Source: a virus (lineage: Duplodnaviria > Heunggongvirae > Uroviricota > Caudoviricetes). From it: a stretch of 28,629 nt of DNA. Made by a program: the position numbers. Position 1 is the stretch's first letter. Each line of letters starts with the position of its first letter. This document shows positions 13,901 through 16,900 of this stretch, one piece after another. The DNA lies in IMG/VR virus record IMGVR_UViG_2627853869_000005; one strand, given 5' to 3'.

Positions 13901-16900
13901 TGTTAATTGCCCTGACTGTCAGGGTGTATTCCCCGAGCGGCAGACCACTGAAACGATGCTCTGTATCCGCAGTGATAGCGGTGGTCACCAGACGGCTGTC
14001 TTCTCCGCTTCCGCTGGTCAGTCGCAGACTGAAGCGCACCCCCTTCACCACCCGCGGCGTGTCCCATTTCGCCTGTGCCAGATACTGGCCGTCAGCTGCG
14101 CTCACCTCCACCGTCAGGTGCTGCACTGCCGGTGGGATGACGCTGTTCAGGGAGCCTGACTGCGGCTCAAAGCGGGCACCGTTATCCACGATGGCTTCTT
14201 TTTCCGGTACGTGCTGCACCGCCGTGATGGCAAAGGTGCCATCCGTGTTTTCCCGGACGGAGACACAGCGGAACAGGCGACGGCGCAGTGACGGCAGGGA
14301 GAGTCCCCACACCCCGTATGTCTCCACACCATCAGGCAGGGTACTGACCTGTATCCGGTCCGGCGCGGGGTGTGCGGTGATGTCCACACTCACCGGCTTA
14401 CCACTGCCGTTAATCAGGTTCACCGCCGATGTACCTGTCTCCGGCAGGGTAACCTCACGGTCCAGCGTCAGGGTGCGGGTGGCAGCATCAATGGACAGGA
14501 CACGTCCGCCGGTCATAGTCCCAGCATAGTCGTTATCACAGATTTCAATAATGTCACCCGGTGTGTGACGCAGCCCCTGTGACCCGAGCGTGAAGTCCAC
14601 CGTCTGCGTTTCCAGCAGTCCGGTCTTTATCACCCACAGACCTGCACGGTGAGCCTGACCGCGGCAGGTACAGCCAAACGCATCCATCTTCAGCAGGTTG
14701 CGTCCGTAGCGCAGTATGGCTTCCGGGTCTTCCACCAGTTCCGTGGAGGTCTGCCAGCCGTTCTGCGGGTCGGTGTAATTCACCTCCACCGCCGTGTGCC
14801 GGTCCTTCAGGGCACTGAAGCTGTAGCGGAATCCCACGCCGTTATCATCCACCACCACATCGCTGTTGGTGTACGGCCACACCACATCCGACGGGCGGTC
14901 CTGAACGAACGTCAGCGTCTGACCGTTCCATACCGGCATACAGCGCATCGCAGAGCAGAAATCACTGAGAACGTCCCACGCCTTACGCTGTTGTGCCAGG
15001 TACGCATTAAAGGTCATCCGCGGCTCGGTCCCCCCGAAACCATCCGGGACCGTCTGGTCGCAGTACTGCCCGATGGCATACAGCGCCCACTTGTCCACAT
15101 CCGCCGCCCCCAGACATTTTCCCATGCCGTAGCGCGGGTGAGTCAGCATGTCCCACAGGCACCAGGCCGGGTTGTTGCTGTATGCCGGTTTCAGACTGCC
15201 GTCCCAGATACCACTGTACGTGCGTTTTTCCGGGTCATAGTTTGACGGCACCTGGATGATGCGACCGCGGATATGGTAGTTCACCGTCATCTGCTGACCA
15301 CCAAACTGCTCCGCATCCACCTGCATCCCCACAATGGCCGTGTTCGGGTAGCACTGTTTCACATCGATGATTTCGGTGTATGACGACCACAGCGTTCTGT
15401 TCTGCAGCTGGTCCGTGGTGCTGTCCGCCGTCTCCCTGACCATCCGGATGTTAAAGGGGCGGGGAGGCAGATTATCCAGAATCACCGACGCAAGGAACTG
15501 TGAGGTGGTCTTGCCGTTAATGGTGACATCCTTTTCTGTCACCCAGTTACCGTTACGCTGTAACTGAATCAGCAGACGGACAGAGGACGGATTACGGTCA
15601 CCCTTTGACGTGGTCTCCACCAGTGACTGCACCCCGAAGGTCACCCGCAGGCGGTCAATGTTCGCTGACGTAATGGTGCGTGTTACCGGTTTTGCCCTGG
15701 TCACTTCGACACCCAGTACAGTTTCAGAGCCGGAGGACTCAAAGCTTTCCGGTGGTGTCTGCTCCTGCTCCCCGGCACGCCAGACCGCGGTCACACCGTG
15801 TATCACGGGATTACCGTCCGTGTCCGTCAGCGGGGTTTTGTTCACCAGAATACTCTGCAGGCCTTTCACCGGGCCTTCTATCGGTCCCTCACCAATCGCA
15901 TCAATCACGCTCATCATCTGCGTGGATTTGAGATTGTCTTTCGCCTCACGCGGTGTGTGCGCCCTGCCGCCACCTTTGCCCATTACATCACCTCTTACCG
16001 TGATAATTGTTCACTCACAAAAACAACAGGCACCTCACCGGGTGCCTGCGTCATGACGGAATAAAATTTCTGAATATCTTCACATTTTCACACACTGACT
16101 GTGGCGCTTATAATTTCGCTGCGTTAGTGTTTTTTTGCCCGAGTAACAAAAACAACTCCTTCACATTGATCTTCATTTGTCTGTCCCCGCAGCTCCGCGA
16201 TCACTGCGGGATTTTTTTATGTTTTATCCCTGTCGCCCGATAACCACGACCTTTCCGCCCCCGCCTTCATCACGGGTGCTGATGTCCTGGGATATACGGC
16301 GGGAGCCAACCAGCATTTCCCCGTAAGGCACCGGCATCGGGTTCCCCTGGGCAATCATGTTATCCAGCGAGGAAAAGTACGTGTTCTGTCTGCCGTTATC
16401 CGTTGCGCGGTAATCCGGTGTTTTTGCCTTCGGGGCCAGCATCTGGGCCACACCGCCCAGAATCATGCTGGCTCCAAGTGAAAACAGCATCGTGGTGGCA
16501 GAAAAACCACCGGCTGCCAGGGCTGAACCCCATAACGCCATTGATGCCCCGGCAGTGAAGAAAGAGCCCACGATGGCTGCCGCCCCCAACACAATCTGCA
16601 GTCCACCCTTTCCGGCCCCGGCCAGTCGCGGCACAATGTGGATGACCGTTCCCTCACCCAGCTGTTTGTGAAGACGGGCATACACCGCCTCCGGTGCCGT
16701 GTCATCACCGGCAATACGTATCTGGTACCAGCCTTCGTTCATCTGACGGCGAAAGCCCGGCATCTGCATCGACAGGGCGCGAATGGCTTCCGCTGCCGTG
16801 TTCACATACAGGCTGAGGCGGCGGCCAAATCGTTGCAAATCCCCGTGAAGGCAGATGCGTGCCAGTGGCGGTGACGCCAGACAGAATGCGTTCGTCGTTG

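Follow-up and report, generated by a model that had tools for sequence, protein, structure and literature searches.

The subject of this analysis is a 240-bp spacer between I and J, two tail genes of a lambdoid prophage located in a stretch of 28,629 nucleotides (referred to at its full length as the window) from the IMG/VR virus record IMGVR_UViG_2627853869_000005 (Caudoviricetes). The spacer carries pasB, the gene for an Hfq-dependent small RNA (sRNA) of enteropathogenic Escherichia coli (EPEC), as a self-contained moron with its own promoter, RNA body and terminator, transcribed away from J and opposite to the tail operon. PasB itself would be a canonical trans-acting Hfq sRNA. A probability of about 0.88 is given to this explanation as one joint figure for the identity with pasB and the proposed mechanism. 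The pasB gene is already known and is not a new sRNA; the leads offered here are ribosome-binding-site targets, an Hfq distal-face handle, a regulator site that may explain the low level of PasB in glucose medium, and a seed-swapping family that includes EcOnc22. The case also illustrates that a reading of raw sequence can recover a real, experimentally validated prophage sRNA.

Identity of the Spacer with pasB

The elements needed to place the gene in the window are as follows.

12510-15983, minus strand: tail tip/host specificity gene J, an open reading frame (ORF) of 1157 aa whose homologue in EPEC E2348/69 is annotated as gpJ; downstream neighbour in the tail operon
16224-16904, minus strand: tail assembly gene I, an ORF of 226 aa whose E2348/69 homologue is annotated as 'tail assembly protein'; upstream neighbour in the tail operon
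16136-16218, plus strand: PasB sRNA as published (83 nt), from the coordinates of Table S6 (PMC8550237) mapped to the window
16087-16114, plus strand: pasB promoter, with the -35-like TTCACA at 16087-16092 and the -10 TATAAT at 16109-16114 (11 of 12 consensus positions)
16186-16218, plus strand: pasB rho-independent terminator, CCCGCAG (16186-16192) and CUGCGGG (16204-16210) around an 11-nt loop, followed by A and U7 (16212-16218)

The ORF bounds of J and I leave 15984-16223 as the spacer within the minus-strand tail operon, in agreement with the preliminary description, which was made from the sequence alone; the RefSeq start of the gene I homologue corresponds to 16805. That description had proposed a prophage sRNA with its own promoter opposite to the tail operon, and had advised a nucleotide search of the 240 bp against known prophage sRNAs. 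The search returned a full match to PasB of E2348/69, which has been validated by Northern blot and is stabilized by Hfq in that strain. The spacer is identical at 240 of 240 bp to prophage PP6 of EPEC O127:H6 E2348/69 (NC_011601.1, 1466256-1466495, minus strand), and it is 100% identical in many complete E. coli genomes. No feature is annotated in the equivalent interval of E2348/69, from gpJ to the tail assembly gene. In Table S6 of the PasB study, the sRNA is listed as E2348CN_0006 of prophage PP6, with 83 nt on the minus strand of NC_011601.1 from 1466343 to 1466261 (PMC8550237), and the Northern probe used for it, AATCCCGCAGTGATCGCGGAGCT, is the reverse complement of window positions 16190-16212. 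The two loci thus have the whole spacer in common, with its promoter and terminator, lie on the same strand at the I-J junction and both contain the probe sequence; they differ in the host genome, and the window has a mosaic tail region and a prophage cut down by IS66 and IS1. Identity to the 83-nt transcript and a location on the opposite strand inside a lambdoid tail operon are what identify the element as PasB.

PasB ranks high in Hfq RIL-seq (sequencing of ligated RNA pairs) data, was confirmed by Northern blot and requires Hfq for its stability (Pearl Mizrahi et al. 2021, PMC8550237). In Table S2, the log2 fold changes for pasB are -6.8 and -2.4, in what is assumed to be the comparison of the hfq deletion with the wild type (PMC8550237). 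The level of PasB is higher in the non-activating condition (static overnight culture in lysogeny broth, LB) than in DMEM (PMC8550237). According to the 2026 preprint of Zhu, Shabalina and Storz, PasB occurs in Escherichia and Shigella, inside phage structural operons, and where a strain is not EPEC it is often the sole Pas gene.

An RNA of about 100 nt had been predicted. The published PasB is shorter, at 83 nt, whereas a start predicted from the -10 element at about 16121 would give 98 nt; the published 5′ end rests on read coverage and Northern size only (PMC8550237). The predicted sigma-70 promoter opposite to the tail operon (TTCACA, 16 nt, TATAAT) and the intrinsic terminator with a 7-bp stem and T7, placed at 16185-16218, were both found as described. 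The statement that I and J are directly adjacent in lambda was incorrect, as they are 60 nt apart (I ends at 15444 and J starts at 15505), so the window spacer holds about 180 bp of extra DNA. An autonomous promoter-gene-terminator unit therefore lies between conserved phage genes where lambda has only 60 nt, which is the arrangement of a phage moron.

RNA Body and Family Variation

Variation within the PasB family was followed in two sets, an alignment of 13 diverse spacers between I and J, drawn from genomes of E. coli and from phages, and 54 unique cassettes taken from those loci and from IMG/VR loci picked by terminator sequence. Two further elements of the RNA are defined by this comparison.

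16145-16156, plus strand: (AAN)4 tract AAC AAA AAC AAC, with periodic conservation in the 54 cassettes; probable Hfq distal-face motif
16156-16186, plus strand: seed region CUCCUUCACAUUGAUCUUCAUUUGUCUGUCC, in which a variable core of 4 nt (16162-16165) stands between UCCUU and AUCUUC, both resembling an anti-Shine-Dalgarno sequence

Adenine occupies positions 16148, 16149, 16151, 16152, 16154 and 16155 in 47-54 of the 54 cassettes, and positions 16150, 16153 and 16156 vary freely. This conservation has a three-base period, the signature of an Hfq distal-face motif; the CA-rich stretch, earlier likened to a site for GcvB, is more plausibly a handle for Hfq as in class II sRNAs, and the (AAN)n tract is a probable Hfq distal-face binding motif. 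Both sequence features of class II Hfq sRNAs are present, an (ARN)n tract and a rho-independent terminator with a U7 tail. The class II sRNAs ChiX, MgrR and CyaR have an anti-Shine-Dalgarno-like seed and target ribosome-binding sites. PasB, as a putative member of the class, likewise has an (ARN)n tract upstream of its seed and a U-rich terminator tail.

Immediately downstream of the tract, UCCUU (16157-16161) and AUCUUC (16169-16174) are conserved in the family, and the 4-nt core between them is variable; since the core varies among alleles, the targets should differ between alleles as well. The terminator stem is strongly maintained, with 98.9% of stem cells paired across the 13 spacers and one compensatory change from G:C to A:U. 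The 9-bp direct repeat CTTCACATT noticed earlier is indeed present, at 16078-16086 and 16159-16167, and is specific to this allele rather than family-wide. Its first copy is invariant because it forms the right half of a conserved palindrome (see below), and the second copy sits in the variable seed core of PasB.

The spacer matched no Rfam 15 family, either in the search of the whole window at gathering thresholds or in that of 15900-16320 at E values up to 10; sub-threshold hits in the spacer (Ref84, Hrs1 and Trp leader, with E of at least 0.55) are taken as chance.

Promoter and Conserved Palindrome

The most conserved part of the spacer lies upstream of the -10 element.

16063-16087, no strand: conserved palindrome block AAAATT-TCTGA-N6-TCACA-TTT, with half-sites at 16069-16073 and 16080-16084; candidate site of a dimeric regulator

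In its family form (AAAA-NN-TCTGA-N6-TCACA-TTT), the block has half-sites that are invariant in the 13 diverse spacers. Of 66 unique upstream sequences from IMG/VR, 59 contain it; it ends 24 nt ahead of the -10 element in every case, and its inner spacer varies. The pattern TCTGA-N6-TCACA occurs once in the window, against 0.08 occurrences expected. Positions A2 and T6 of the -10 element are invariant in the 13 aligned spacers and conserved in at least 97% of the 54 cassettes; the -35 hexamer picked by the scan is not conserved among divergent copies. Conservation continues after the -10 element, over 16115-16136, in both family sets, which suggests that this leader is transcribed; in the predicted fold of the 98-nt form, its U-run is able to pair with the A-tract.

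Such a pattern of constraint makes it probable that some dimeric regulator binds the candidate site. The consensus of CRP is TGTGA-N6-TCACA, and TCTGA-N6-TCACA agrees with it at nine of ten core positions. CRP may specifically be the reader of the site, a tentative identification with the odds somewhat against it; the lower level of PasB in glucose-containing DMEM than in overnight LB is compatible with CRP control. Readings of the palindrome as a sigma-E -10 element, an FNR site, an ARG box or a minus-strand promoter were rejected on spacing or sequence. A scan of species-representative genomes for the promoter module gave, beyond chance-level hits, Escherichia albertii only.

Predicted Targets and Proposed Mode of Action

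Table S5 lists 37 RIL-seq interactions of PasB (PMC8550237). In the available rows, PasB is the second RNA in chimeras with E2348C_2648, the napF 5′-untranslated region (UTR), map, hflX, fabR, bfpB, caiF, the tolC 5′-UTR and other mRNAs, and is once the first RNA, in a chimera with an RNA from the pasA locus; in the sRNA-sRNA rows available, its partners are RNAs of the pasA and pasC loci, and the contiguous block of PasB rows for the non-activating condition has 26 chimera entries with mRNA and intergenic partners (all PMC8550237).

Ten RIL-seq partner fragments of E2348/69 were searched against the first 70 nt of the 98-nt PasB for the best local duplex. In all ten, the best duplex fell within 16153-16190, and 6-8 of the ten overlapped 16157-16174; the CA-rich stretch was used in the best duplex by none of them. 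The napF pairing has 16 contiguous base pairs (15 Watson-Crick and one G-U) and -25.7 kcal/mol, and its z relative to 30 dinucleotide shuffles is -4.8; for tolC, z = -2.9. The predicted pairings at ribosome-binding sites are listed below.

napF: PasB CUUCACAUUGAUCUUC (16159-16174) with target GAAGGUCAAUGUGAAG, -10 to +6, over the Shine-Dalgarno sequence and the GUG start
caiF: PasB seed 1 with target UGUGAAGGA and the GGAG Shine-Dalgarno sequence, straddling the AUG
tolC: PasB seed 2 with target CAAAUGAAGA, over the AUG
yijD (under fabR in the RIL-seq table): PasB seed 1 with target AAUGUGAAGGA, -17 to -7, on the Shine-Dalgarno sequence

In the proposed mechanism, the U7 tail and the conserved (AAN)3-4 tract would hold PasB on Hfq, and the adjacent anti-Shine-Dalgarno-like seed (about 16156-16186) would pair with the ribosome-binding sites of napF, caiF, tolC and yijD and thereby block translation initiation. 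The family would keep promoter, AAN tract and terminator and vary the 4-nt seed core, giving allele-specific targets. Transcription of pasB probably needs a host dimeric regulator at TCTGA-N6-TCACA, for which CRP is the best guess. If this holds, host genes for anaerobic metabolism and virulence would be under nutrient-responsive regulators encoded in prophage tails.

Several points weigh against this explanation. The function of PasB is stated as not elucidated (Zhu, Shabalina and Storz 2026 preprint), its targets here are predicted, and its published expression is that in E2348/69, the window being a different genome. Predicted duplexes other than those of napF and tolC are no better than shuffled controls, and the energy search favours the GC-richer part of PasB and disfavours the A-rich part, so that the clustering at the seed is partly biased; for these reasons the seed assignment rests mainly on napF, tolC, caiF and yijD. 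For the top partner, which accounts for 774 chimeras and lies upstream of the holin genes in both PP2 and PP5, the predicted duplex has only -17.5 kcal/mol (z = -0.6). As to CRP, the palindrome centre (16076.5, with the -10 element starting at 16109) is about -44.5 from the predicted start, rather than at the class II position of -41.5; a start at 16120 would bring it to -43.5, and both starts are predictions. The left half-site is always TCTGA rather than TGTGA, and the palindrome may also be read as a Cra-like TGAA-N4-TTCA.

The top partner is an unannotated plus-strand RNA of E2348/69 (positions 583-775 of the extracted locus; NC_011601.1, 743482-743674) between the SASA esterase and holin genes of PP2; it runs in antisense over the 5′ end of pasA and stops at a terminator of its own, and a near-identical copy is present in PP5 (1290834-1291070, plus strand). 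The two copies are loci L002 and L003 of the collection. This RNA could be a PasB sponge or a lysis-cassette leader; an AgvB-like nature was considered and rejected, as it has no Rfam match and its duplex with PasB is unremarkable. Chimeras of PasB with the rpoS leader region appear in the RIL-seq table as nlpD.E2348C_3010.IGR, and the RefSeq record of E2348/69 gives rpoS as a pseudogene with a frameshift (NC_011601.1, 3101474-3102467; locus L025).

Alternative Explanations

PasB might act in cis, in addition or mainly, as an antisense RNA to the I-J portion of the late tail mRNA, leading to RNase III cleavage or transcriptional interference and to less J from the same or related phages. Its full complementarity to the intercistronic part of that mRNA, the convergence of its transcription with the tail operon and the constant position of the cassette at the I-J junction of lambdoid tails all speak for such a role. 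A further element on the operon strand could be part of the same control.

16016-16049, minus strand: terminator-like hairpin with the stem 16027-16034/16041-16048, then UUGUUUUUGUG; the J ribosome-binding site follows about 30 nt further on

This hairpin, which had been noted before, with a U-tract upstream of the J ribosome-binding site, as a possible attenuator of J and was recovered by the scan, runs from 16049 to 16026 and is followed by TGTTTTTGTG; it has nine pairs, a folding energy of -22.5 kcal/mol and z = -3.4 against shuffles. It is kept in 10 of the 13 spacers, with one covarying pair (CG in five, UA in five), and two of the remaining three carry a different J-proximal module with its own hairpin and T-run, so that a terminator-like hairpin persists between the cassette and J even where that module is swapped. 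It is possible that the hairpin serves as a terminator read through by late Q-modified polymerase, as the protective 3′ end of the upstream mRNA, or as part of cis-antisense control. Against a cis role, the window prophage is a remnant with IS66 and IS1 and with neither head genes nor a late promoter, its tail operon having lost its promoter, yet the cassette has remained whole and does not differ from the allele that was studied; action in trans is favoured by the variability of the seeds and by the large number of trans partners, and data on cleavage of the tail mRNA were not found. A cis-acting PasB is accordingly judged unlikely beside the trans-acting sRNA set out above.

As an observation on the same part of the spacer, the J-proximal half is swapped for an unrelated module of about 175 nt in strains 95-3192 and Survcare321 and in E. 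albertii (loci L009, L011 and L150). This module has a GC-rich hairpin, CCCCGGTATC-AGCA-GATACCGGGG, with T-runs on both sides, and the neighbouring pasB cassette is unchanged.

The preliminary description had also likened the CA-rich stretch, AACAAAAACAAC, to the sequences that GcvB binds; on that reading PasB would be an anti-sRNA that mimics GcvB targets and titrates GcvB as AgvB does. The stretch does resemble GcvB target sites in its C/A-richness, and prophage anti-sRNAs of this kind exist in enterohaemorrhagic E. coli (EHEC), namely AgvB and AsxR (Rfam RF02702 and RF02703). Like PasB, these are prophage-encoded and Hfq-bound, with ARN motifs and with a variable segment for pairing attached to a conserved terminator portion. 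They nevertheless belong to another sequence family of 51-60 nt with a common conserved 42-nt 3′ region, occupy a moron site downstream of PR' and target sRNAs, whereas the partners of PasB in the available rows are mostly mRNAs. The Rfam check proposed earlier gave no RF02702 or RF02703 match in 15900-16320, at gathering thresholds or at E up to 10, and membership in that family is ruled out by the position between I and J, the length of 83-98 nt and the lack of a model match. AgvB and AsxR pair with and antagonize a core sRNA (GcvB or FnrS); pairing of PasB with GcvB was supported neither by the available RIL-seq rows nor by the predicted duplex: in the sRNA-sRNA rows available for both conditions, gcvB::sroC is the only GcvB pair and gcvB::pasB is absent, and GcvB, dppA and oppA are absent from the contiguous non-activating PasB rows. 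In a windowed search, the best local duplex of PasB and GcvB had -12.3 kcal/mol against a shuffled mean of -15.6, and 38 of 40 shuffles equalled or surpassed it. Moreover, the AgvB consensus CACAACA does not occur in PasB, the conservation is a periodic AAN rather than a fixed bait sequence, and PasB is the second RNA in all mRNA chimeras of the available rows, as regular sRNAs are. A role as a GcvB decoy is thus not supported and is weakly refuted, and it is given a very small probability.

Still less credible is that the spacer encodes a small protein, either through the 78-aa plus-strand ORF (16007-16243) or through a short minus-strand ORF such as that annotated as hypothetical in phage PhiR12_1. 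ORFs are present, and one phage record annotates a 33-aa spacer ORF. However, neither the 78-aa nor the 26-aa minus-strand ORF has a Pfam match, in line with the earlier remark that the spacer holds no credible ORF, and the 78-aa ORF would start at TTG. The stop-free run of 75 codons in the window shrinks to 30-56 codons in most homologous spacers and extends to 89-120 in 3 of 11, the indels among the copies are not multiples of three, and conservation tracks the promoter, AAN tract and terminator rather than codons. The lack of Pfam matches and the unstable stop-free runs (30-120 codons) rule this reading out.

EcOnc22 and Tandem Cassettes

EcOnc22 is an RNA of about 85 nt by Northern blot, destabilized without Hfq, from the Stx1 prophage Sp15 of EHEC O157:H7 Sakai, and has the paralogues EcOnc23 and EcOnc24; the three are located in Sp15, Sp14 and a third location (Tree et al. 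2014). By its published coordinates (NC_002695.1, applied to version 2 of the record without an offset check), EcOnc22 lies in the J-I spacer of Sp15 (ECs_2944/ECs_2945), on the PasB strand. This spacer resembles that of the window in its palindrome, -10 element, AAN tract and terminator; its seed core, CCAUAACGUUAAUCUUC, differs from the window core, and the targets are probably different. Full-length spacers of O157-type and Stx phages are about 77-81% identical to the window spacer among the matches listed. A member of the EcOnc22/23/24 group would be an Hfq-bound RNA of about 85 nt, homologous in sequence, between J and I in prophages of the Sp15/Sp14 type, and the Sp15 spacer has the cassette architecture of PasB. 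EcOnc22 of the Stx1 phage is a PasB homologue, a link that is not made in the PasB and EcOnc22 papers (PMC8550237; 2026 preprint; Tree 2014).

In 9 of 110 IMG/VR loci, two to four promoter modules stand between J and I with a period of about 220 nt: four in L045, L085 and L096, three in L050, and two in L029, L030, L070, L131 and L134. Each array cassette has the TCTGA-N6-TCACA module and a -10 element, the RNA bodies are divergent, and one cassette of the L045/L096 array uses a different terminator, CCCGTCAATATCCAGGTGTATTACGGGAGATTTTTT. No pasB copies closer together than 28 kb were reported (Zhu, Shabalina and Storz 2026 preprint), and tandem PasB-type arrays are not described in the PasB papers (PMC8550237; 2026 preprint). 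The same two sources contain neither the promoter logic nor the napF pairing nor the EcOnc22 link.

A degraded locus of strain AHB30 (L012), with no J annotated beside the spacer, has a second PasB-like terminator, CCGCAGCTCCGCAACTCTGCGGGATTTTTT, upstream of its cassette at positions 100-250; this extra terminator is probably the remnant of a tandem cassette.

A broader interpretation would treat the I-J junction of lambdoid tails as a place reserved for sRNA cassettes of modular build: a fixed regulator site (TCTGA-N6-TCACA, perhaps read by CRP or some other sensor of carbon state) together with the -10 element, a fixed (AAN)n Hfq handle, a swappable 4-nt core between anti-Shine-Dalgarno-like arms, and a terminator that does not change. 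By exchanging seeds and lining up as many as four cassettes, phages would provide lysogens with nutrient-gated, quickly evolving translational repressors, the allele of the window tying its prophage to napF, caiF and tolC. This is speculative and, in its full form, doubtful; if it were true, the window allele would link the prophage to anaerobic respiration and envelope genes through these three targets.

The Window Prophage as a Mosaic Remnant

The window is identical to E2348/69 only over 15965-16661, about 700 bp that comprise the start of J, the 3′ portion of gene I and, between them, the pasB cassette. Outside this block, the tail genes are mosaic and 82-100% identical to E2348/69, with a mean of 93.6% over 11853-21805, and none of the complete E. 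coli genomes of the collection matches the tail region above 96.5% over 82% of its length. The identity block points to recent recombination or to selection acting on the cassette. What is left of the prophage is a remnant that lacks head genes and a late promoter but in which the pasB cassette is intact; an intact pasB in a decaying prophage fits an autonomous moron that is beneficial to the host. The remaining features of the window are given below.

About 21800-24560: IS66-family insertion sequence (IS) element, with TnpB and DDE transposase ORFs at 21915-24194; it interrupts the tail region upstream of the tape-measure gene
25737-26240: IS1 transposase, which truncates the major tail gene, and with it the prophage, at about 25.7 kb
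26476-27402: pocR, chromosomal, beyond IS1
27491-27665, plus strand: full-length cobalamin riboswitch (RF00174, 103.5 bits), adjoining pocR and IS1

The riboswitch is an ordinary chromosomal leader of the cob/pdu locus that adjoins the truncated prophage, and not a phage feature.

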